Virus genome (UHGV): UHGV-1657810
DNA from: a virus
Reading direction: 5' to 3' (one strand)
DNA: 14,005 nucleotides
Position numbers and translations under genes: made by a program. Below are positions 1,538 through 13,445 of this stretch, in pieces. The notes under the pieces are model-generated. The model searched no databases. It was not told where the DNA came from and saw only the letters and a program-made list of their open reading frames with translations. Each line of letters starts with the position of its first letter. The stretch's first letter is position 1.

Positions 1538-4008
1538 CAGAATCCCCCAACAGTAAGGCGAGGAATAACGGCAAGAACAGACAGCGGCAACGGGTCAAGC
1601 TGACGGATTTTTACACGTCCGTTTTTGCCCCAGTTACTGTCCAGTTTCACTTCTACTTTTCCGGTAGCATCATCAACAGGATCATCGTAGAACTCGAATT
1701 CACGCTGTGGATATTCGTACCATTTACCGCCGGGCGTAGTCGCCCAGATGCCGCGACTGGCATTCACAACCAGAGTAACGGAGGGGGTTACCTGTTTTTT
1801 ATCCAGCAGCGTTTCCTGTCCGTTAATGTTGATATCCAGTGTTTCGAATTCAGCAGTTATTGGCAGGCCGATGTGCACTACAGCCCCCGGAGATTCCAGC
1901 GTGACGGCACCTCCGGAAACCACTTTCTGTGGTTCCACGTTCGCATCAGAGAGAATGTTTACGGCCTGGCCTTCAAGATGAGACAGGCCTCCAAATGTCC
2001 GGCGCGCCATCTGCCAGTTCGTGGTGGCCACACTCCTGAGGGATGGCGGGACGTTCCTGTTAGCACGAACCACTACAGCGGTATTGCTGGTTACAGAAAT
2101 AATGTCGCAACGTAATTCTTTTGACACTTCATCGCCAGTATCAGGAACAGTTCCGGTATAAGGGAACTGTAGTTGCGCGCCGACATCACTACTGGTGAAG
2201 TACGCACCACCAGAAACACTGATTGTATATTCCGCACGGTAATCCCATTCACCAGAACCACCAGTGATGGTCATCGTTCTGTCAGACGTATTTCTTCCAT
2301 CATAGCTAAGGCCAGAATCAACAAAGAAAGCATCTTCATCGCTGGTAAATAAACGGCTGGACAGCCGCTCGATGTATCTCACTGTTTGCCCGTTAACGGT
2401 TCGGTTAACGACGAAATACACCGCATCTTCATTTCCTTCGCTGATACTGCATGTGCTTTCATATTTTCCGGTACTGGACTGTGGTGCCCATGCAAAAACC
2501 TGTTGATCACGCAAATAGGTCATCACCAGTAATTTACCGTCATCACGAATGCAGAAGGCGCTGGAGTAAGGGACAATAGAGAAGCACCAGTCAACGATGC
2601 TGTGCTTCTGAAAAAGATGATTAGCAAGGATGGTCAGGTCGTTCCCCTGATAGCCGTCAACATCGAATGAGTAGGCCAGATCACGGACAACACTGCCTTT
2701 CTCCTGGACGAACAGAGCAATATTCGCCACGGCAATTGGTGGGACATTGCTCGAGCCATTTGATCCCTGAGAGCTGAATGCAAATGATGATGGGGTTAAT
2801 ACTTTGTTCTGGTCGCCGGTGATGACGTACTCACCTCCGGAAGTCAGCGCCACCAGCGAACCAACATCAATCAGGTGGCGGATCTCATTAACCTGACGCC
2901 CGGCATAGGTGTAGATAATTCTGTCGTCATCCTGCGTAGGATTGCTTTTGCCAAAATCCTTATAATCCCCGGTACGGCTGGCCCAGATAGTCTGAGGGAA
3001 CGCAGTCGATGCGGCGAAGTAAAGACGTTGTTGATAATAAACAACAGTGCCAGGATAACCATTAACACTGTTCCAGGCATATTTAGCCCATTTATAGCTG
3101 GCATTATCCTCGCCAACGACCTGCGAAGGGATATAGGAAATCACCTCGGCAGTTGCAGTAGTTCCATTTGCAGCAGTGATACGGGCAATGCCAAAACCAC
3201 TGTGCAGATATTCCCACTCAATACCAGTATCATCATCACCGGATCCGCCCCAGCCATCCCATGATGTGCCTTCTGTATGCGAAGGGCGCAAAGTACCTGT
3301 TTTGCCTGCTGTAACGGCGCGATAGTAGTTACTGTCTGCACGGCGAATATCGCCAATCGACGTACTCTTACTGGTTTCCCATACCGGCACTGAATCCACT
3401 GCAGGCTGTTCCAGATAGAACAATTTGCCTACCTGCTCCGCGCCAAAAATAGAGGCGCTTGCCGTTAACGTAATTGTCCCGGTGCTGGCGCTGGCATAAA
3501 CCGTCACTGACTCGTCAATATTGATATCTTCAAATGGTCCGTTCTTCGTTACCACATCAACCAGTTGCCAGTTGTCATGCGCATAGCGACGCAACTCTTT
3601 CGGCGGGTATGCCGGATGAACAAGCGTAAGCACGTCTGCGCTTTGCGTGAATTTAATTCGGAACAGATCGGCTTCAGTATATGGCGTGGCAATTTCATAA
3701 ATAACATTGCTGCTGTTCAGCACCAACGCACCATCTTTGATAACGCGCATGTACTGGTGTCCGAACTCCAGAGCATAAGTCTGAACCGTCGAGAACTGGA
3801 ACGGGATCAGGCGGCATTTCCGATTTGGGTATTTGGCGGCACCGACAAAACGCGTACCAGGTCGATTCTCAACGCCGCCATACTGCCGCACGATAAAGTT
3901 ATCGCACTTGCGCAATGCCACCTGGTACTTCGCCATGTCGATACGACCGTACAACGACGGTCCAATCTCACCACCAGCAAAGCTGGGCTGGATCCAACTG
4001 ATAGCCAT
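1537..4008 (-). CDS. Tail tubular protein B (T7 gp12-like), 823 aa
   Basis: 823-aa ORF. The N-terminus MAISWIQPSFAGGEIGPSLYGR resembles the recalled T7 gp12 N-terminus (MALISQSIKNLKGGISQQPDIL). Size class about 800 aa, directly downstream of a roughly 200-aa gp11-like gene. ATG at 4008 overlaps the upstream stop; RBS GAGG about 10 nt upstream. Confidence 0.7.
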   Translation of the reverse strand: MAISWIQPSFAGGEIGPSLYGRIDMAKYQVALRKCDNFIVRQYGGVENRPGTRFVGAAKYPNRKCRLIPFQFSTVQTYALEFGHQYMRVIKDGALVLNSSNVIYEIATPYTEADLFRIKFTQSADVLTLVHPAYPPKELRRYAHDNWQLVDVVTKNGPFEDINIDESVTVYASASTGTITLTASASIFGAEQVGKLFYLEQPAVDSVPVWETSKSTSIGDIRRADSNYYRAVTAGKTGTLRPSHTEGTSWDGWGGSGDDDTGIEWEYLHSGFGIARITAANGTTATAEVISYIPSQVVGEDNASYKWAKYAWNSVNGYPGTVVYYQQRLYFAASTAFPQTIWASRTGDYKDFGKSNPTQDDDRIIYTYAGRQVNEIRHLIDVGSLVALTSGGEYVITGDQNKVLTPSSFAFSSQGSNGSSNVPPIAVANIALFVQEKGSVVRDLAYSFDVDGYQGNDLTILANHLFQKHSIVDWCFSIVPYSSAFCIRDDGKLLVMTYLRDQQVFAWAPQSSTGKYESTCSISEGNEDAVYFVVNRTVNGQTVRYIERLSSRLFTSDEDAFFVDSGLSYDGRNTSDRTMTITGGSGEWDYRAEYTISVSGGAYFTSSDVGAQLQFPYTGTVPDTGDEVSKELRCDIISVTSNTAVVVRANRNVPPSLRSVATTNWQMARRTFGGLSHLEGQAVNILSDANVEPQKVVSGGAVTLESPGAVVHIGLPITAEFETLDININGQETLLDKKQVTPSVTLVVNASRGIWATTPGGKWYEYPQREFEFYDDPVDDATGKVEVKLDSNWGKNGRVKIRQLDPLPLSVLAVIPRLTVGGF

Positions 4009-4613
4009 CAGGACAACCTCGCAATGGTAAACTCGTCAACCGGTGGCTGTGGTTCCTGTGATTCATTCTGGCTATGCGAACCAGCACTAAGAATCACGCG
4101 ATTGTACATATTGAGAGCAAATGTACCGAGATCCGCATTCCCAGTCAGCGCCATGTTAATGGCTGCCGCAAGACGCCAGGCCAGCGCCTCCATAAAAATG
4201 GCATCAAACATGTTCACATCTGAAACGCGAGAGACATACTTGAGCCATGCCTGCGGCTGGTCTGTATAGATCAATTTTCCTGTTCCGTTGGTGTCTGCAC
4301 CAACTTCGTACTGAACGCGCATTGCTGCTGTTGGATTGCGTACACCAGGAAGCATAATTTCAGTAATGCGCAGACAATCGGACGGGTACTGGTACGCATA
4401 TTCCCAGTCAGGCGGTGGATTGCTCGTATCTGCAAGCGCCACGCGTTTGGTAGCAAAGTTCCAGTCAAAATCAGAAAGCACAGCATCACGGCAGGCCTCA
4501 AAGTGCAGCGAACATTCCCCCGCTTCCTTGCTGGCTTCCGTCAGGCTGTTAATGCTGCGGCTATTGCCAATATTGGACAGCGCACGATTACAGATCTCTA
4601 CTACAGAGGCCAT
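4008..4613 (-). CDS. Tail tubular protein A (T7 gp11-like), 201 aa
   Basis: ORF 4008..4616 in the track. I prefer the ATG at 4613, preceded by GGAGGTGA with 5-nt spacing; the track start at 4616 is GTG. The N-terminal segment ALSNIGNSRSINSLTE is reminiscent of the T7 gp11 N-terminal region as I recall it. Size about 200 aa, immediately before the gp12-like gene. Confidence 0.6.
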   Translation of the reverse strand: MASVVEICNRALSNIGNSRSINSLTEASKEAGECSLHFEACRDAVLSDFDWNFATKRVALADTSNPPPDWEYAYQYPSDCLRITEIMLPGVRNPTAAMRVQYEVGADTNGTGKLIYTDQPQAWLKYVSRVSDVNMFDAIFMEALAWRLAAAINMALTGNADLGTFALNMYNRVILSAGSHSQNESQEPQPPVDEFTIARLS

Positions 4614-5821: not shown

Positions 5822-6808
5822 TTACACCACGCGGGCTTCTGTTTCCAGAAGTGCGTCAGTTTCACGGATTGGTACACCACGGAATGAAGTCCACCACTCG
5901 CCTTCAGTCTCTTTTACGCTGATAGCCAGAGATGTTTTCTCCAGAGACTGTAGATCAAGAGCCTGGCCTACAGTGCGGTTCATGTAGAACACCGGGCGGC
6001 CCATGCCACGGTTTGGAATGCGATGCAGTGCTTTAACCATCAACTTCGCAATATTTGCGGCAGAGGAAGGTTCTGAAAGATTGCTGACATCGATGTTTGC
6101 AATGCGAACAACATAACGCCAGTCACGCAGAGCAAGTCCGTTGTCCCATTTGTAATGGGTACGGTAGCCTTCGTACTTGCCGCCATTCGCATCTTCCAGT
6201 GTCACCTGGCCTTTATCTTCCATCTGGATGCCAGCCTTCTGCCCTTTCGGGAAGATGCCATGCACGGTGTTTTCGCCCCACACCACTAACCAGATTGAGG
6301 TGTTATCTGTACCCGTGCCACCAGCATCAATAATGTTCTGAGCATTACCCGCAGACAGGCTGGAATAGCGGGAGGACAATCCCATAAACTGCTGAGGGTT
6401 AACGCTGGAATCACCATAAAACAACGTCTGCGCCATCTGCTGATTCATCGCTTCAATAAATGCGCGGTCTTCAGACAGGCGGAATTCGGCGGTATTACCG
6501 TTCAGATCAGCCAGTGACTTATCGACTTCAGCATAGGTTTCCAACATGCCAACGGAATCGGTGACCTGCACTGTGGTTGATTTGCTTGGCTGTACGCCAT
6601 AGTTCAGCAAACGCCAGGTAGCTGAAGGTAAACCAGAACGAATGGTGGTTCGGTGTCCGGTAGGAAGGTTCCCTTCGACAAAAGGCATATCCTGAAGGAT
6701 CGGGTTTGTTTGACCGAGAAGCTCGATAATCTTATCGACTTTCCCGTTTGGATCGACGCGCTTACCCCAGTCAGCCAGCGTTAGCGCAGTTAAGCCTTTA
6801 ACAGCCAT
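5822..6808 (-). CDS. Major capsid protein, 328 aa
   Basis: 330-aa ORF in the track, directly downstream of the scaffold gene and upstream of small structural genes. I prefer the second ATG at 6808 (MAVKGL...) because GAGAGGAA lies 7 nt upstream of it and is too close to the ATG at 6814. Size and position match T7-type/HK97-fold capsid proteins. Confidence 0.8.
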   Translation of the reverse strand: MAVKGLTALTLADWGKRVDPNGKVDKIIELLGQTNPILQDMPFVEGNLPTGHRTTIRSGLPSATWRLLNYGVQPSKSTTVQVTDSVGMLETYAEVDKSLADLNGNTAEFRLSEDRAFIEAMNQQMAQTLFYGDSSVNPQQFMGLSSRYSSLSAGNAQNIIDAGGTGTDNTSIWLVVWGENTVHGIFPKGQKAGIQMEDKGQVTLEDANGGKYEGYRTHYKWDNGLALRDWRYVVRIANIDVSNLSEPSSAANIAKLMVKALHRIPNRGMGRPVFYMNRTVGQALDLQSLEKTSLAISVKETEGEWWTSFRGVPIRETDALLETEARVV

Positions 6809-6822
6809 TGTCATTTCCTCTC

Positions 6823-7520: not shown

Positions 7521-7817
7521 TCACTCCTGTTCACTGGCCTCTTTGGCCATCTTCAAATACTGTTCAGGGCAATGCGCCATAACGCGCTGAAACAGTTCCA
7601 GCGCCAGATTGCGTTGCCCCTCATTAAATGCCATTGCCATAGCGTCCATCGGTGAGATAGCGGAAAACACACGGCCTTTCTCCAGCACCGACCAGACAAC
7701 GCGACGTCCCTGTTCACTGCTCATGACAAAGCGAATGTCATCAATTTCACGCTGCGCCATGTCACGTTGCTTACGGGCGTTTTCTTCTTTCAGTTGATCG
7801 TCTTCGTAATCTGTCAT
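7521..7817 (-). CDS. Hypothetical protein, 98 aa, between portal and scaffold
   Basis: ATG at 7817 overlaps the portal stop (ATGA). Charged helical protein; no motif recognised. Confidence 0.5.
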   Translation of the reverse strand: MTDYEDDQLKEENARKQRDMAQREIDDIRFVMSSEQGRRVVWSVLEKGRVFSAISPMDAMAMAFNEGQRNLALELFQRVMAHCPEQYLKMAKEASEQE

Positions 7818-9493
7818 TGTGATTGCCCACCCTGACCACTAACTGCATTCGCCATAGCTGACAACACACTCGGATCCGAAGTTTTAGCTTCGCTTAGCGT
7901 CTTGGCCCCCTGTGCCGCCGCCATCCCCATCGCCATCATTTGTTGCTGCTGTTGTTGCTGTGCCCGTTGCTGGCGAGCCTGCTCAACCTGTTCCTGCGGA
8001 ACAATGACGGTTGGAGACACTCCGGACATATCAGCGAATGCATCGATCGCCTGATCAACGTTGAGTTTGTCGAGAGCTTCTGGTTTCGCTTGCGCAAGTT
8101 GACCAATGAAGTTGACCGTAGACGCCAGACTGGACAGGCCGATAGACTTCTGCGCCTGAGCCATGACGGAAATGTATTCGACCTTCAGGGGCATGCCTTC
8201 CATCGCGTCAGGCGGTGGCGGCAGCATGTTTTTACGCACCATCATCGAGAAAGAGCGGTCAATGAGAGGATTAAGACATTCGTCGTTCAGACGCTCCAGA
8301 ACCGGCCCCAACATCAGAAGTTTTTCTTCTTTCATTTCGATCACCGCTTCAACAGGCATCGAGCGGGTATTGATGTTCTGCAACATCATGAACAGATCGA
8401 CAAAGTAGGCGCTGTTAATGATTTGACGAGTGTCCTGAATGTCTGCCACCAAATCTGCTGTACTGGGGTTAACCAGATAAGCAGGCCTGAAGCCATCCTG
8501 ACCAGTAATCTGATCGATATACGTGATGTCGCCAGGAAGAAGGGAGGCGCGCTGATTCTTGAGGGAAGTCGGAGCAACCATCGGCGGATTGGTGGCTTTA
8601 TCAATCAACTGCGACTTGCGCTTCTGGAGAAGCTGCAATGCCTTAACAGGTCCAAGCGCCAGCATACCCGGGCATGATGATCCATAAACATCTTCGCCGT
8701 TAACTTCCCAGCGCGGAGCCATAATTGGAAACTCATCGAATCCGGACTCACGCAACAACTTGTCGTTATCGCCGCCAACCTCGTAATAAACCGATTTGAA
8801 TGGCTTGTTCTTGCTATCCAGCTTCGATGTATCGCGGTCAATGTTCGGGTAAACCGAATGCATCACTTCAATCCACTTCTCGTAGGTGCCGCTTTCCCAC
8901 ATGCTTTTTACGGATTCGCTGACGTTATTTAGCCCGAACTCCTGAACAAGCTGACGAACAGTCATAGAGAACTTGCGAAAACAGGTGTCCACACTGCCAC
9001 GAGGTGAGTTAGCCAAGTAGTAACTGCCTATCGGGAATGGCATTGTGCGAATGATGTCCTCATCATCCTCCAGTACCGCCATTGCGCCGGTGCTGTATGT
9101 GCCGAGGCTTCCGTATAACTGCGGCAGCGACTGATAGAGATTCGACTTATTGAACATATCGTTCATGCGGTTCTGCACGGCCTCAAGCCACAACTTAACA
9201 GGGCCATAATCCATCATTTCAGGATCTGGCGTAGCCAGGCGAAACCACGGACGCGCGGGGCTTGTGATGCCTGACATCATGCCGCTGGCGAGAGTGCGCG
9301 CCGCCATAGTCCCGGTCGAATCAATAATGCGTGTATTGCGTCGATCGTTACGGTTGACCTCAGAAGTCAGAAAGCGGGAACCACGCGGGTTGATGTAATC
9401 ACTCAACTCGCGCCAGTGCGGCTCGAACGACTGACGCTCGCTTTCAAGTTGTGCGAACTGTTTGTTCAATCGCTCTTTAGTTGTTTCCGCCAT
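7814..9493 (-). CDS. Portal protein (T7-type head-to-tail connector family), 559 aa
   Basis: 559-aa ORF immediately downstream of terL and its insert. The Gln/Ala/Met-rich C-terminal tail (QQRAQQQQQQQMMAMGMAAAQGA) is characteristic of T7 gp8-like connectors as I recall them. ATG at 9493 with GGAG SD. Confidence 0.85.
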   Translation of the reverse strand: MAETTKERLNKQFAQLESERQSFEPHWRELSDYINPRGSRFLTSEVNRNDRRNTRIIDSTGTMAARTLASGMMSGITSPARPWFRLATPDPEMMDYGPVKLWLEAVQNRMNDMFNKSNLYQSLPQLYGSLGTYSTGAMAVLEDDEDIIRTMPFPIGSYYLANSPRGSVDTCFRKFSMTVRQLVQEFGLNNVSESVKSMWESGTYEKWIEVMHSVYPNIDRDTSKLDSKNKPFKSVYYEVGGDNDKLLRESGFDEFPIMAPRWEVNGEDVYGSSCPGMLALGPVKALQLLQKRKSQLIDKATNPPMVAPTSLKNQRASLLPGDITYIDQITGQDGFRPAYLVNPSTADLVADIQDTRQIINSAYFVDLFMMLQNINTRSMPVEAVIEMKEEKLLMLGPVLERLNDECLNPLIDRSFSMMVRKNMLPPPPDAMEGMPLKVEYISVMAQAQKSIGLSSLASTVNFIGQLAQAKPEALDKLNVDQAIDAFADMSGVSPTVIVPQEQVEQARQQRAQQQQQQQMMAMGMAAAQGAKTLSEAKTSDPSVLSAMANAVSGQGGQSQ

Positions 9494-9507
9494 TTCAATG
9501 ACTCCGG

Positions 9508-9714
9508 TTACTGACCAAGCAGCGTTTTACCGCTGGTATTAGCGGTTGATGTGTCGCCCTGAGAACCGGTAAGCAGCGTAGAACTACGACCAGCAGCAGC
9601 GCGACGGCGACGTGTTTCTTCGTCGCGGGCATCAACAACGGCGGCATCCTGCTCCTGTGGTGCTGCCTGAACTTCTGGTGTTGCAGGCACTGATGGTGAG
9701 CTGCCCATGCACAT
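9508..9714 (-). CDS. Hypothetical small protein, 68 aa, low complexity (uncertain)
   Basis: ORF with ATG at 9714 preceded by GGAG. Its stop at 9508 sits on the portal RBS, suggesting translational coupling. Composition is Ala/Arg/Thr-rich, so it could be a spurious ORF. Confidence 0.3.
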   Translation of the reverse strand: MCMGSSPSVPATPEVQAAPQEQDAAVVDARDEETRRRRAAAGRSSTLLTGSQGDTSTANTSGKTLLGQ

Positions 9715-9865
9715 ATCAATGACTCCGTACGCAATTAAATTATTACCAATTTAACCACATATGATTTATTTATCGTAGATAGTTGACATTTAACGCACAA
9801 ATTATTACCTTCAAGGTAAGTAAAGGGTTCATTCCGGTTATTAACCTGACTGGCTTGTCGTTAAA

Positions 9866-9893
9866 TTGAACAGGTGGAGTGAGCTTTTATTTT
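9866..9893 (+). promoter_or_regulatory. Candidate sigma70 promoter for the plus-strand tRNA/moron transcript (weak)
   Basis: TTGAAC (9866-9871), 16-bp spacer, TATTTT (9888-9893), inside an AT-rich segment. An alternative perfect -35 TTGACA at 9783-9788 has only a weak -10. Not verified. Confidence 0.2.
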
Positions 9894-10141
9894 GAGCAGT
9901 ACGGCGTATGGCACATGCGCCGATAGCGGTCTGGATACGTTTAAGGGGCACCCTCCCTTGCTCGGGCAAACGAACCAGGTAGCCGGAATGTGCAAGTCGA
10001 GCGGTTTTATTCCGCGCACGGGGATTCACCATCCCGGAGATTCGGTGTGACACCTCGGAAGAGACGAGGGTACAACGATGAGAGCATTTATGGAGCCGCG
10101 ACAAAGTGTGGCGCCTTAACAGGCTAAGTGCTCTCAGCGTT

Positions 10142-10218
10142 GTGGCATTAGCTCAGTTGGACAGAGCAACCGCCTTCTAAGCGGTTGGTCGCAGGTTCGA
10201 ATCCTGCATGCCACGCCA
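10142..10218 (+). tRNA. tRNA-Arg, anticodon UCU (reads AGA/AGG)
   Basis: 77-nt perfect cloverleaf read by hand: acceptor GTGGCAT/ATGCCAC (7 bp), D stem GCTC/GAGC, anticodon stem ACCGC/GCGGT with loop CTTCTAA (anticodon TCT), T stem GCAGG/CCTGC with T-loop TTCGAAT, discriminator G and encoded CCA. The body resembles enterobacterial argU as I recall it. Confidence 0.93.
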
Positions 10219-10261
10219 GAATCACGCCTAAGGACCGTGATGCCAGAAGTTCCAGGGGCTT

Positions 10262-10303
10262 GGCGGTGATGGTTTCCCTTGAAGGACTATCACCGCCCTT
10301 TTT
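10262..10303 (+). terminator. Rho-independent terminator downstream of the tRNA
   Basis: GGCGGTGAT (10262-10270) pairs with ATCACCGCC (10289-10297), a 9-bp stem with a structured loop, followed by CTTTTT (10298-10303). Confidence 0.65.
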
Positions 10304-10381
10304 ACAGCAGGACGCCATTGCGATGACTTCATGCTGTAAACCAGTACAGCCACGGAAGGCATAACTCATTGCTTCCAGTTC

Positions 10382-10405
10382 GCCCGGTTCGCCGGGCATT
10401 TTTTT
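10382..10405 (+). promoter_or_regulatory. Hairpin plus T-tract immediately upstream of the moron ORF RBS (terminator or attenuator-like)
   Basis: GCCCGG-TTCG-CCGGGC (6-bp GC stem, TTCG loop) followed by ATTTTTTT, then the SD AAGGTGAG and ATG at 10422. Confidence 0.4.
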
Positions 10406-10421
10406 AAGGTGAGATTAGACT

Positions 10422-10793
10422 ATGAGTGACAAAGACATTGAATCTGAAATTCAGGCTAAAGGTTTAGCCGCGCCGCGCGTTACGCCAGACAATATCGAGA
10501 GCATTATTGCTCAGGAGTCATATTTCACAGCAGAAGATGGTGCCTTTGGCGTAGCCATAAAAGCGAAACATACTGGCGGAGAGGTAAACTACCAGCCGCA
10601 CGAATCACTTTCTCTGCTGACGTTCTGCGTCCTGGTGCTGCGCAACGGCTTCACCGTCACCGGAGAGAGCGCCTGTGCAAGCCCGGAAAACTTTGATGCA
10701 GAAATTGGTCGGAAGATTGCCCGACAGAATGCTGTAAACAAAATCTGGATGCTTGAAGGTTACTTGCTGAAGCAGAAGTTAAGCGAGCAATAA
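10422..10793 (+). CDS. Hypothetical moron protein, 123 aa, cytoplasmic, unknown function
   Basis: Only convincing plus-strand ORF in the window. ATG at 10422 with AGGTGA SD, TAA at 10791, own terminator downstream. No signal peptide or TM segment; acidic N-terminus, C-terminal amphipathic helix (AEIGRKIARQNAVNKIWMLEGYLLKQ). Possibly related to the small phage accessory family typified by N4 gp49 / Sf6 gp66, but that is an unverified recollection. Confidence 0.6.
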   Translation: MSDKDIESEIQAKGLAAPRVTPDNIESIIAQESYFTAEDGAFGVAIKAKHTGGEVNYQPHESLSLLTFCVLVLRNGFTVTGESACASPENFDAEIGRKIARQNAVNKIWMLEGYLLKQKLSEQ

Positions 10794-10813: not shown

Positions 10814-10842
10814 AGCCAGCCTATGAGCTGGCTTTGTTTTAT
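10814..10842 (+). terminator. Rho-independent terminator after the moron ORF (possibly bidirectional)
   Basis: AGCCAGC-CTATGA-GCTGGCT (7-bp stem) followed by TTGTTTTAT on the plus strand. On the minus strand the hairpin is followed by GUUUGUGAU, so it may also act weakly after terL. Confidence 0.55.
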
Positions 10843-10883: not shown

Positions 10884-12359
10884 TTAAGCATAGGGATCGT
10901 AATCTGTGATGGCCTTGCCTTGCTGGTTCTGCTGCCCGGGAATTCGCAGACGCTTAGACACAGGGAACGCAAACGTCAGCAGTAGCGCATCGCCTTTACC
11001 CGGTGAACGCCCAAGCCGCTCCTTGATATCTTCCTTCGGTTCGATAACGATTTTACCGTCCACTCGAACTTTGTACTCTGCCGCCGACAGGTCGTCTGCT
11101 GTTTCCTGGTCATCCAGCATGCCGCCAAGCCTCAGCCATGTCTTGCATGAATTGAACATCTCCCCACGCTTGTTGAGCATCTGCGGGTCAGTAGACGCGC
11201 CACCGAACGGAACAAGTTGCCATGTACGACCCCAGCCATCACCGATTGACTTCAGACCGGTTCCGTAACCGAAGTCGATGAACACCGCGTCAGCCTGGTA
11301 CTGGTCTTCAAAGTCGGCGATACGCTTCGCCATAATCAGATCGTCAGTGGTCTTGTTGCCGGTCCACAGCACCTTACTGTGCAGCCCCTGCCGCAGGTAT
11401 ATCACAGCGTCATCAACGCCGGAGTATGCCGGGTCAACACCGATTATCACCGGAGCATGTGCCACCTGCGCAGCGGTTACCACCCGTTTCATTGCCTCAT
11501 CAGTAAGACCGGTAGGGATAAACTGCAATTCAGATGCATCAGGGAATATGCCACGCACACGGATTTTAACGAAGTCGCTGTCTTCCCCGTAGTCATCAAC
11601 CCATTTCTGCAACTGCTGTTTGTTGGTACCTTCCACCGTACGACTGTCAATCTGCGCAGTTTTCCAGCGGTGTTTATACTTGCGGAAACATTCACGGAAA
11701 CGTCCGGTATTACGCGTCGGGTTCCCGAACGCCACCCAGATGATTTCGGTGTCTTCGTCCGTCAGCGCACCCTCTGCTACCTCCCACACCAGATCGGCAA
11801 TGTTCGACGCTTCATCGAATACCACGATGATGCGTTTGCGCTCGTTGTGTAGTCCGGCGAATGCCTCAGTGTTGTGCTCAGACCAGGGGATTGCGTCAGC
11901 TCGCCACCGCTTGTCGTGCCCAGGGTCATTGCTGTACATCGCGGTAGCGGTACAGGTAAACCAGTCTTTCGTGATAGCAAGGTTTGACCACTTGATAATT
12001 TCCGGCCAGGTCTTCGTTCGTAGCTGGTTGTCGGTGTTGGCGGTCACCACGACCTTACAATCCTCGCAAGTGGACATGCCCCAGTTGATCAGCATTGAGA
12101 TGAATGCGGATTTACCAATACCGTGACCAGAAGCGCGTGCCAGCATAAGCGGCTGATAGCGCGTCTCTGGATTCTGCAGGTGATCGCGTATCTCTCGGAA
12201 CGCATCAGCCTGCCACTGACGTGGGCCGGTAGCATGTGCCAGTTCAGTCCCCTCTTCCCCCCAAGGGAACGCATAGAGGGCATAGCCAAGCGGATCGTGA
12301 GTGAACCCTGCAATATCCTCGATCAACTGCTCTTCAGGAGATAACGCTGTATCTGTCAC
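10884..12359 (-). CDS. Terminase large subunit, 491 aa
   Basis: Walker A P-loop ARASGHGIGKSA, Walker B IIVVFDEAS, and a C-terminal nuclease-like region (IIGVDPAYSG...D...). Directly downstream of terS with a GTGA start/stop overlap; start is GTG at 12359. Confidence 0.92.
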   Translation of the reverse strand: MTDTALSPEEQLIEDIAGFTHDPLGYALYAFPWGEEGTELAHATGPRQWQADAFREIRDHLQNPETRYQPLMLARASGHGIGKSAFISMLINWGMSTCEDCKVVVTANTDNQLRTKTWPEIIKWSNLAITKDWFTCTATAMYSNDPGHDKRWRADAIPWSEHNTEAFAGLHNERKRIIVVFDEASNIADLVWEVAEGALTDEDTEIIWVAFGNPTRNTGRFRECFRKYKHRWKTAQIDSRTVEGTNKQQLQKWVDDYGEDSDFVKIRVRGIFPDASELQFIPTGLTDEAMKRVVTAAQVAHAPVIIGVDPAYSGVDDAVIYLRQGLHSKVLWTGNKTTDDLIMAKRIADFEDQYQADAVFIDFGYGTGLKSIGDGWGRTWQLVPFGGASTDPQMLNKRGEMFNSCKTWLRLGGMLDDQETADDLSAAEYKVRVDGKIVIEPKEDIKERLGRSPGKGDALLLTFAFPVSKRLRIPGQQNQQGKAITDYDPYA

Positions 12360-12988
12360 TGATTACCATCCTGACGTTCTTTGAGTCGCTTCCTGGCTGC
12401 TGCTATGCGATCAGCAATTGTCACATTCACATTAACATCCAGGCGCTCTTTGAACGCGTTAACGTCGACGTGTTTACCGATGAGCTCGAGGTTTTTCACC
12501 TTGTCGGGCCATTTCACCTTCTTCAGGATATGCTCGACATCCTCAACAGAGAGATCCGCCTCGCCATTCTCTTTTTGCAGAGAAGCCTGGGTCGTCTTGA
12601 TGGTAGCGATATCCATAGCACTGAGAGAGGTACGCCAGACCTTCGGCCATTCAGCGATCGGCTTCATCCCGCCGTCATCGTTCAGGATATCCAGCACGTC
12701 CATCTGGTCGATTTCCACCAGGCGCAGCAGGACATAATCAGCACTGACGCGCAGGCGCTTGTTGCGCTCTTCCATCAGCTCGGCAATCCGTTTTTGAATG
12801 CGTTCATCGCGCATCATGACACTGGCTTTAACTGCCGCTGTATTTGGAGAGAATCCTGCGTTAATCGCTGCCTGAGTCTGGTTTTCAGGCGTTTTGATGT
12901 ATGACTGGCAATAAGCCTCCTGCATTGCTGTTAGTGGCTTAAATTGCGTTGATTTGCGTTTATAGGTTTTAGGTTCAGCAGGCATCAT
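12356..12988 (-). CDS. Terminase small subunit (P27-type), 210 aa
   Basis: Contains QAAINAGFSPNTAAVKASVMMRDERIQKRI, the helix-turn-helix-like signature I associate with P27-family small terminases. Stop overlaps the terL start. I place the start at ATG 12988 (MMPAEP...) rather than the track's 13066, because the 26-codon N-terminal extension would run through a terminator hairpin and the dyad repeats. Confidence 0.85.
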   Translation of the reverse strand: MMPAEPKTYKRKSTQFKPLTAMQEAYCQSYIKTPENQTQAAINAGFSPNTAAVKASVMMRDERIQKRIAELMEERNKRLRVSADYVLLRLVEIDQMDVLDILNDDGGMKPIAEWPKVWRTSLSAMDIATIKTTQASLQKENGEADLSVEDVEHILKKVKWPDKVKNLELIGKHVDVNAFKERLDVNVNVTIADRIAAARKRLKERQDGNQ

Positions 12989-12994
12989 AACCAC

Positions 12995-13027
12995 CGTGGT
13001 AATAGTTACCGTTGTGGTAATAGTACC
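12995..13027. repeat. Tandem dyad-symmetric repeats immediately upstream of the terS start
   Basis: GTGGTAATAGTTACC (12996-13010) and GTGGTAATAGTACC (13014-13027). Each contains the inverted repeat GGTAA-N3-TTACC (the second imperfect). They lie between the terminator hairpin and the terS start codon. Confidence 0.5.
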
Positions 13028-13030
13028 ATG

Positions 13031-13057
13031 CAGAATAAAGCCGCCATAGTTGGCGGC
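13031..13057 (-). terminator. Intrinsic terminator-like hairpin between the 112-aa gene and terS (minus-strand sense)
   Basis: On the minus strand: GCCGCCA-ACUA-UGGCGGC (7-bp stem) followed by UUUAUUCUG. Confidence 0.5.
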
Positions 13058-13106
13058 AGTATTCAAAACCCATCAAATTCATCATGCATAATCTACTCGT
13101 GACATG

Positions 13107-13445
13107 TCACACTATTAATTTCGTTTCATGCCAGCCTTTAGTCACCCAGCATTGCGAGTCACCATTACACGGGCATGAATTAACTGGAACTCTCTCGCCG
13201 CACTTACCGCAACGTTTTCTGCTGATCGATTTTATACGCCCGTGCGCGCGAGCATCATCCTGGCGGATAAGTAACGCAATATACTCACCAAATTCGTAAG
13301 GCACACGCCCGGGGCGACGCGTGGCGCAGTTCCGCTCCAGCATTTCAATTTCCTGAGCATCAAGCACAATCTCCAGCTTACGTACACCGGATGCAGCTTG
13401 TCTGGCTCTCTGAGCGGCTTTGCGCTCTGCTGCTGATTTAGCCAT
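13107..13445 (-). CDS. Hypothetical Cys-rich (zinc-ribbon-like) protein, 112 aa, immediately upstream of terS
   Basis: ATG at 13445 overlaps the end of the upstream gene by 8 nt. Basic Ala/Arg-rich N-terminus (MAKSAAERKAAQRARQAASG) and C-terminal C-x2-C-x8-C-x-C-x5-C cluster (CGKCGERVPVNSCPCNGDSQC). Position matches small genes found between lysis genes and terS in E. coli cryptic prophages (YlcI/YnfO-like), but the family assignment is unverified. Confidence 0.55.
   Translation of the reverse strand: MAKSAAERKAAQRARQAASGVRKLEIVLDAQEIEMLERNCATRRPGRVPYEFGEYIALLIRQDDARAHGRIKSISRKRCGKCGERVPVNSCPCNGDSQCWVTKGWHETKLIV

Follow-up and report, generated by a model that had tools for sequence, protein, structure and literature searches.

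A prophage tRNA-Arg(UCU) gene lies behind a conserved structured leader RNA and a candidate repressor-controlled promoter

What does a temperate phage gain from a tRNA gene for rare arginine codons that is placed antisense to its own late genes, and when would such a gene be transcribed? The question is raised by a 14,005-nucleotide stretch of DNA (UHGV virus genome UHGV-1657810; here the window), which is a prophage of the phiV10-like Uetakevirus type (epsilon15-like podoviruses) and which between positions 9500 and 10900 shares 98–99% identity with phiV10, with O157 typing phages 9 and 10 and with numerous E. coli chromosomes. The late genes are encoded on the minus strand (capsid, 5822–6814; portal, 7814–9493; gp3, 9508–9714; TerL, 10884–12359; TerS, 12356–13066), and between TerL and gp3 a tRNA gene is found at 10142–10218 on the plus strand, opposite to TerS, TerL, gp3 and portal. 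It belongs to a plus-strand unit that is convergent with TerL and has terminators of its own, including the intrinsic terminator T1 (10262–10303, plus strand; −22.8 kcal/mol), in which a 14-bp stem (10262–10297) is followed by the T-run, CUUUUU in the RNA. A bidirectional terminator at 10814–10833, which is also annotated in phiV10, separates this unit from TerL.

ARAGORN returned a tRNA-Arg with anticodon TCT as the sole tRNA in the window, and the same segment scored 73.3 bits against Rfam RF00005 (E = 8.6e-15; gathering score 29). The gene has the 7/4/5/5-bp stems, U33, purine at position 37 and T-loop of a bacterial elongator tRNA-Arg(UCU), with seven Watson-Crick acceptor pairs, U8, G18G19, A20, A37, the T-loop TTCGAAT, discriminator G73 and a CCA end that is encoded in the gene. 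The identity bases for ArgRS are A20, C35, U36 and G/A73. It can be seen that these are in place, the anticodon UCU being held in the loop CUUCUAA, the D-loop AGUUGGACA supplying A20 and the discriminator being G. Comparison of segments and of variants supports the same call. These results bear out the initial annotation, which had described a complete phage-borne tRNA-Arg(UCU) between the terminase and portal genes, antisense to the late genes and with its own terminator.

The gene is 100% identical to the phiV10 copy, and a tRNA-Arg is annotated in several GenBank phage records, in RefSeq and in phiV10-like prophages of E. coli; the junction between the tRNA and the RNA upstream of it is present at 95% identity or more in approximately 500 of 5426 complete E. 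coli genomes. For a close relative, ‘one tRNA’ is mentioned and nothing more is said of it (PMC9782041), and our literature search found no functional study of the phiV10-type tRNA-Arg. The tRNA is genuine and, judged from its sequence, looks functional; it is also ordinary, and annotations of it existed already. In the phiV10 record a coding sequence, PhiV10p04, is drawn over the tRNA and has no family support. The corresponding frame in the window (10148–10399, minus strand) and a second one over the upstream RNA (9841–10104, minus strand) have no family matches, and similar coding sequences antisense to the RNA are found in mEp460 (gp36 and gp37) and Enterobacter phage Tyrion (gp54), again with no family support. 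Lacking family support, these antisense coding sequences are probably spurious.

The closest functional equivalent in the host is E. coli argU (dnaY), with which the phage gene shares the anticodon and a length of 77 nt including CCA. The MG1655 copy and the phage tRNA are identical at 64 of 77 bases and differ at 13, the differences falling in four acceptor pairs (all compensatory), two anticodon-stem pairs (29:41, G:C to C:G; 30:40, A:U to G:C), position 20a and two bases of the variable loop. The anticodon loop CUUCUAA, the D-stem, the T-arm and the discriminator are the same in both. Across related loci we found 22 sequence variants of the phage tRNA, in which the stem changes are compensatory or wobble and the anticodon loop is invariant. 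The recurrence of the tRNA in so many forms with compensatory stems is, on sequence comparison, far beyond chance. Together with the invariant loop it is what a working decoder would show, and it speaks against the idea that a tRNA gene was once captured and is now a relic without function. Such a relic would fit the presence/absence polymorphism of the tRNA within the genus, epsilon15 being one phage that lacks it, but is hard to square with a perfect cloverleaf, an encoded CCA and compensatory substitution around an unchanging anticodon loop, and we consider it scarcely credible.

The same comparison bears on the suggestion of the initial annotation that the gene has a counter-defence role, as a nuclease-resistant substitute for a host tRNA-Arg(UCU) cleaved by an anticodon nuclease, and that substitutions relative to argU in the anticodon stem-loop might confer such resistance. 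The phage tRNA is indeed not a copy of argU, with two anticodon-stem pairs and four acceptor pairs changed, and genes resembling tRNA-Arg(UCU) abound in phages (1609 records); the anticodon loop, however, is the same as that of argU and does not vary in any of the 22 variants. Colicin D, a known tRNA-Arg nuclease, cleaves in the anticodon loop, so the phage tRNA should stay sensitive to it. Neutralisation of PARIS and of retron effectors by phage tRNAs is described in two reports (PMC11464382, PMC11555353), and the evasion mechanism for phage tRNAs given in another (PMC10264068) is change of the anticodon loop. The anti-defence phage tRNAs (T5 tRNA-Lys against PARIS, tRNA-Tyr against retron effectors, mycobacteriophage tRNAs) resemble the window tRNA in being isoacceptors that duplicate a host tRNA, but differ from the targeted host tRNA in the anticodon loop or stem-loop, whereas the loop studied here matches argU. 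No defence nuclease specific to tRNA-Arg(UCU) was identified in a literature search, and we regard a counter-defence role as very unlikely.

If the tRNA is a decoder, there should be codons for it to decode. Codon counts were made in typing phage 9, which is 98% identical to the window in the tRNA region. AGA and AGG together make up 10.8 per 1000 codons in this phage (14.5 in non-late and 7.2 in late genes), as compared with 1.4 per 1000 in 40 core genes of MG1655. The genome-wide figure for K-12 is approximately 3.3 per 1000. These codons are thus 3–8 times commoner in the phage than in its host. The initial annotation named supplementation of rare codons for late genes as one general role of phage tRNAs. 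Phage genes are indeed rich in AGA/AGG, but the excess lies in early, accessory and tail genes and not in the head and packaging genes: the capsid, protease, portal, gp3 and terminase genes have 0–5 per 1000, the most highly expressed virion genes having neither codon, and frequencies of up to 15–47 per 1000 are reached in lysis, tail/injection, replication and small early genes. ‘Late-gene supply’ is therefore imprecise, because the capsid, portal and terminase genes are almost devoid of these codons.

A putative transcriptional regulator (phrog_536; 13107–13445, minus strand) just upstream of TerS has four AGA codons among 112. These stand at Arg13, Arg15, Arg76 and Arg85 in the tRNA-bearing phiV10 clade, and in 23 of 23 relatives that lack the tRNA both Arg13 and Arg15 are encoded by CGN. 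This pattern is suggestive of a link to codon supply, in a comparison where the AGA-rich form is essentially one lineage and the association with the tRNA is thus phylogenetically confounded. Over whole genomes, the use of AGA/AGG is no different in relatives that have the tRNA from that in relatives that lack it (7.5 vs 9.3 per 1000, p = 0.26), and the idea of genome-wide co-adaptation of these codons with tRNA presence was dropped. Given this equal usage, and given that epsilon15 has no such tRNA, any benefit would be modest or conditional, and codon supply is plausible and not obligatory.

Unlike argU, which is a stand-alone chromosomal gene, the phage tRNA sits behind a phage leader RNA. 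The 430-nt gap between gp3 and the tRNA is non-coding and is conserved in phages of E. coli, Salmonella, Enterobacter and Klebsiella, and the tRNA begins directly after a leader of approximately 245 nt (9896–10141). The first part of this leader is a structured core of approximately 175 nt (9896–10071, plus strand), a long-range multistem fold in which hairpin B has the loop UCACCA and hairpin C reads CCUCG-GAAGAGA-CGAGG. In an alignment of 42 sequences the consensus fold leaves 98.6% of cells paired, as against 25–39% when the partners are slid, and double changes occur at 9 pairs. Invariant U.G pairs place the RNA on the plus strand, the same as the tRNA. A covariance model built on the leader finds one copy in the window, at 9896–10071 and on the plus strand only (141 bits, E = 1.6e-37), and no match in HK022 or in the host control. 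Two coding alternatives were discarded. One-nucleotide indels in the most conserved block, together with the covariation and the G.U pattern, indicate an RNA and not a protein-coding sequence; and a candidate leader peptide with an AGA codon (ATG AGA and onwards, 10079–10120) has its ATG in a stem arm, lacks it in many variants and is broken in frame by the insert lengths.

Beyond hairpin C a closing stem on the plus strand (10073–10141) surrounds a variable insert and ends at position −1 of the tRNA, its 5′ arm being CAACGATGAGAGCA (10073–10086) and its 3′ arm TGCTCTCAGCGTT (10129–10141). The arms co-vary between loci, as in the pairs GATGAGAGCA/TGCTCTCAGC, AGGTAAGAGCA/TGCTCTTTCC and CAAAAGAGCGC/GTGCTCTTTTTG. 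The 3′ arm reads UGCUCU(C/U).. and so resembles boxA, but is predicted to be paired, whereas the boxA consensus (U/C)GCUCUUUAACAA is single-stranded. In three loci of lambdoid context (L035, L091 and L094) a hairpin is followed by a perfect rrn-type boxA, TGCTCTTTAACAA, some 60 nt past hairpin C, and in L085 a boxA variant with one mismatch, AGCTCTTTAACAA, stands after the core.

The leader has no Rfam family, as judged from searches with the window and 18 related loci, and searches by sequence strings and keywords in literature other than the P1 genome paper returned no description of it. It is nonetheless widespread: blastn finds it in 1831 of 5426 complete E. coli genomes (~34%), and of the 40 records listed only one has a feature annotated beneath the match. 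A 26-nt motif within it (10044–10069) occurs in at least 120 IMG/VR contigs and also in 15 species representatives of Enterobacterales. In epsilon15 the covariance model finds a truncated remnant only. This phage (L008, 2598–2727) and VB_ST_E15 lack the equivalent of window positions 9937–10267, and the junction in epsilon15 lies in two similar segments of approximately 25 nt, the P4/P5 segment of the core (9927–9950) and the 5′ arm of T1 that resembles it (10263–10287), which suggests a deletion by recombination.

The leader occurs in three phage contexts. In Uetakeviruses it lies in the gap between TerL and gp3. In lambdoid prophages (mEp460, cdtI and Stx2c phages) it is found directly 3′ of a cI-type repressor gene and a PL-like promoter, TTGACC-17-GATACT. 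In P1, P7, D6, SJ46 and RCS47 the core is in the ban operon, directly after trnI and before ban, and in P1 an annotated C1 operator controls ban expression. The P1 arrangement is a close parallel to the window, in that the tRNAs of a temperate phage (trnA, trnT and trnI) stand in an operon under the operator of the phage repressor, that the same core follows trnI directly (71023–71191) and that trnI reads a rare codon, AUA. It differs in order: P1 has the tRNA on the 5′ side of the core and the ban mRNA after the core, whereas the window has the core first, then the tRNA and then terminators. The ileZ-argN-argO genes of Stx phages lie upstream of stx in the late region. These and other phage tRNA-Arg(UCU) genes are comparable as rare-codon tRNA-Arg genes of E. 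coli temperate phages, and are approximately 82% identical over the core of the tRNA, but have another sequence and another location, with no sign of the leader in the searches done.

When would the tRNA be made? The best plus-strand promoter match within 9690–10145 is a candidate sigma-70 promoter for the leader-tRNA transcript, with a −35 of TTGACA (9783–9788), a 17-nt spacer and a −10 of TACCTT (9806–9811), which agrees with consensus at 9 of 12 positions and falls below a stricter scan threshold. Its −35 and the bases TTACC..T are invariant in six Uetakeviruses from four host genera, and transcription is predicted to start near 9818. An operator-type palindrome, ATTACC-N5-GGTAAG (ATTACCTTCAAGGTAAG, 9804–9820), overlaps both the −10 and the start site. 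In the epsilon15 record this palindrome is annotated as repressor binding sites (‘repressor’), including at the position homologous to 9804–9820. There are seven perfect copies in epsilon15, three of them beside the repressor gene, and approximately 15 copies in typing phage 9 as against 2.1 in shuffled sequences, and copies stand at the heads of transcription units. In the window, copies of ATTACC-N5-GGTAAT were noted at 9804–9820, 12987–13003 and 13005–13021, at the heads of the gp3-portal/leader unit and of the TerS unit. The dispersal of the copies suggests that the repressor acts at many sites, in the manner of P1 C1.

Because the candidate promoter is overlapped by a repressor operator, the tRNA is most likely made when repression lifts, on infection or induction. 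Read together with the settings of the leader in lambdoids and in P1, the operator suggests that transcription is early-lytic and under repressor control. The initial annotation had reasoned from the antisense orientation and the separate terminator that the tRNA would be expressed in the lysogen. Orientation and terminator carry no information on promoter control, so this step is unsupported, and the operator over the best promoter candidate and the repressor control of the leader in lambdoids and P1 speak against it. A related explanation is that the tRNA is a moron, constitutively transcribed from the prophage to the benefit of the host or of prophage genes in lysogeny. The separate unit convergent with TerL, closed by T1 as its own terminator, and the variability of the slot occupied by the tRNA are in keeping with a moron. 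There is also a weaker promoter candidate outside the operator, TTGAAC-N16-TATTTT (9866–9893), which could drive constitutive transcription; this is lineage-specific, however, and is not conserved in other Uetakeviruses. With the better candidate overlapped by the operator, and the same leader under repressor-controlled promoters in two other phage groups, we think constitutive expression unlikely, albeit the most serious of the competing accounts of the tRNA.

The position occupied by the tRNA is itself variable. Among 98 Uetakevirus loci with the leader, a biased and redundant sample, tRNA-Arg(UCU) is present at the same offset in 41, a tRNA(CAU) stands on the 5′ side in 4, and 53 are without a tRNA, and in P1-like loci a tRNA(CAU), annotated as tRNA-Ile2 in P1, abuts the core in 16 of 17; the leader is thus recurrently linked to rare-codon tRNAs. 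Most relatives have a tRNA-like or other RNA in the slot instead. A trailer hairpin 3′ of the tRNA, ATCACG-N9-CGTGAT (10221–10241, plus strand), forms the conserved right flank of the slot and is also present in relatives with something other than the tRNA there. In loci that keep this flank, all alternative payloads begin with GTGG and finish in CCAC(A) followed by ACCA or ACCC, a pattern equivalent by sequence to an acceptor-like stem plus an NCCA-like tail. Payloads with intact acceptor, D and T arms and a 60–70-nt expanded anticodon or variable region were observed at L055 (8173–8299), L112 (1309–1433), L036, L050 and L095. With such tRNA-like alternatives in the same place, tRNA-Arg appears as the canonical member of a tRNA/tRNA-like slot. 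At L041 a 47-nt payload segment (3971–4017) matches a small-subunit rRNA helix model (38 bits, E = 3.5e-7), an rRNA-like piece that is seen in only 4 of 228 loci, and 4098–4150 of the same locus gives a weak DicF-like match. The idea that the region mimics an rrn operon, with a boxA-like arm, a tRNA- and 16S-like payload and tandem terminators, was rejected on this low count and on the finding that blastn detects no similarity between the leader and rrnB.

The composition of the slot raises the possibility that the tRNA serves mainly as punctuation, releasing or defining the 3′ end of the leader through RNase P, and that decoding is a bonus. This would account for the many relatives whose slots hold non-decoding RNAs with an acceptor-like GUGG...CCAC stem and then ACCA or ACCC, and for the payloads that retain D and T arms around an expanded middle; P1-like elements have a tRNA immediately 5′ of the core instead. 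However, a mere RNase P handle would not need the anticodon loop and ArgRS identity bases that are strictly kept in the 22 variants, and some loci have protein genes directly after the core with no tRNA-like element. We consider punctuation as the main function to be quite improbable, less so than counter-defence and more so than a moron.

Downstream of T1 lies a short structured interval (10304–10405, plus strand) that ends in a second terminator, T2 (10382–10397 followed by U7), whose stem co-varies with that of epsilon15. The interval between the two terminators is conserved and small-RNA-like. A proposed RyhB mimic at 10351–10405 was dropped, since it scored only 18 bits (E = 2.6), with CATTGCTTCCAGT shared and its GCUUCC, by prediction, forming a local hairpin with GGAAG. 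The next gene, of family PF13876 (N4 Gp49 / Sf6 gp66; 10422–10793, plus strand), has a ribosome-binding site that starts 2 nt past T2, so that its expression requires read-through of T1 and T2. Relatives diverge directly after T2, which marks the position of this gene as a variable protein slot. In mEp460 a terminator-like hairpin with a T-run is seen by eye at a place similar to that of T1. In Tyrion (L007) the gap between TerL and gp3 holds three extra small ORFs, and at 3120–3184 an int-alpA RNA (RF02996, 44 bits, above threshold). The gap between TerL and gp3 is a hotspot for accessory cargo.

The need of the Gp49-family gene for read-through of two terminators, and the place of the core where nutL or putL would be in N-less lambdoids, lead us to favour, by analogy, cis-acting antitermination or anti-Rho activity as the role of the leader. 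A parallel in position is offered by the put RNAs of HK022, which are cis-acting processive antiterminators. In N-less lambdoid prophages the leader, like these, comes directly after an early promoter of PL type, and it further resembles them in its promoter-proximal position with intrinsic terminators between it and the genes, both in the lambdoid context and in the window. It differs from them in form, put being two stem-loops of approximately 35 nt in a putL/putR pair and the leader a multistem RNA of approximately 175 nt present once per phage. Homology to put was rejected, as blastn gave only a 13-nt chance match in the nun gene region and the covariance model found nothing in HK022. An N-like protein encoded after the leader in mEp460 was also rejected, the first downstream ORF having neither an arginine-rich motif nor a Pfam match.

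We therefore return to the tRNA as a functional elongator tRNA-Arg(UCU), a repressor-controlled, early-lytic supplement to argU for AGA-rich genes, a reading that we rate at somewhat better than even. On this model the promoter near 9783–9811 would fire once the repressor is lifted, on infection or induction, giving an untranslated transcript of approximately 490 nt that would comprise the leader (9896–10141), the tRNA and the trailer and end at T1. RNase P would cut at 10141/10142, exactly where the closing stem ends, and the encoded CCA would leave only 3′ trimming. The phage tRNA would then add to the scarce argU tRNA of the host, and the AGA (and some AGG) codons of early, accessory, lysis and tail genes would be translated with it.

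A wider reading, which we offer tentatively and hold to be possible rather than probable, is that the tRNA is one of several interchangeable cargoes of a family of phage leader RNAs not described before, recognisable by three covarying helix groups and the loops UCACCA and GAAGAGA, and placed at the start of early operons under repressor control in three groups of temperate phages that are unrelated to each other: Uetakeviruses, N-less lambdoid prophages and P1-like phage-plasmids. Acting in cis, the family could constitute a novel class of antiterminator or anti-Rho RNAs, by which polymerase would be enabled to transcribe untranslated payloads (tRNAs, tRNA-like RNAs and small RNAs) and to pass T1 and T2, and the tRNA or tRNA-like module might in addition provide the site at which RNase P releases the leader.

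As a tRNA, the gene changes little, since few phage tRNAs are commoner than those for rare arginine codons, and the copy in the window was already annotated. What does change is the inferred timing, which is reversed from that of the initial annotation, the gene now looking repressor-controlled and early-lytic and not lysogenic. The part worth follow-up is the conserved leader RNA with its tRNA/tRNA-like slot, the tRNA serving to flag a conserved, unannotated structured RNA that is present in ~34% of complete E. coli genomes and also in phage P1. Should the leader prove to act in cis as an antiterminator, or else as a processing scaffold, this would account for the expression of early operons with long untranslated RNA at their start in N-less lambdoid and epsilon15-like phages, and the probably spurious coding sequences annotated over the leader would be corrected as well.
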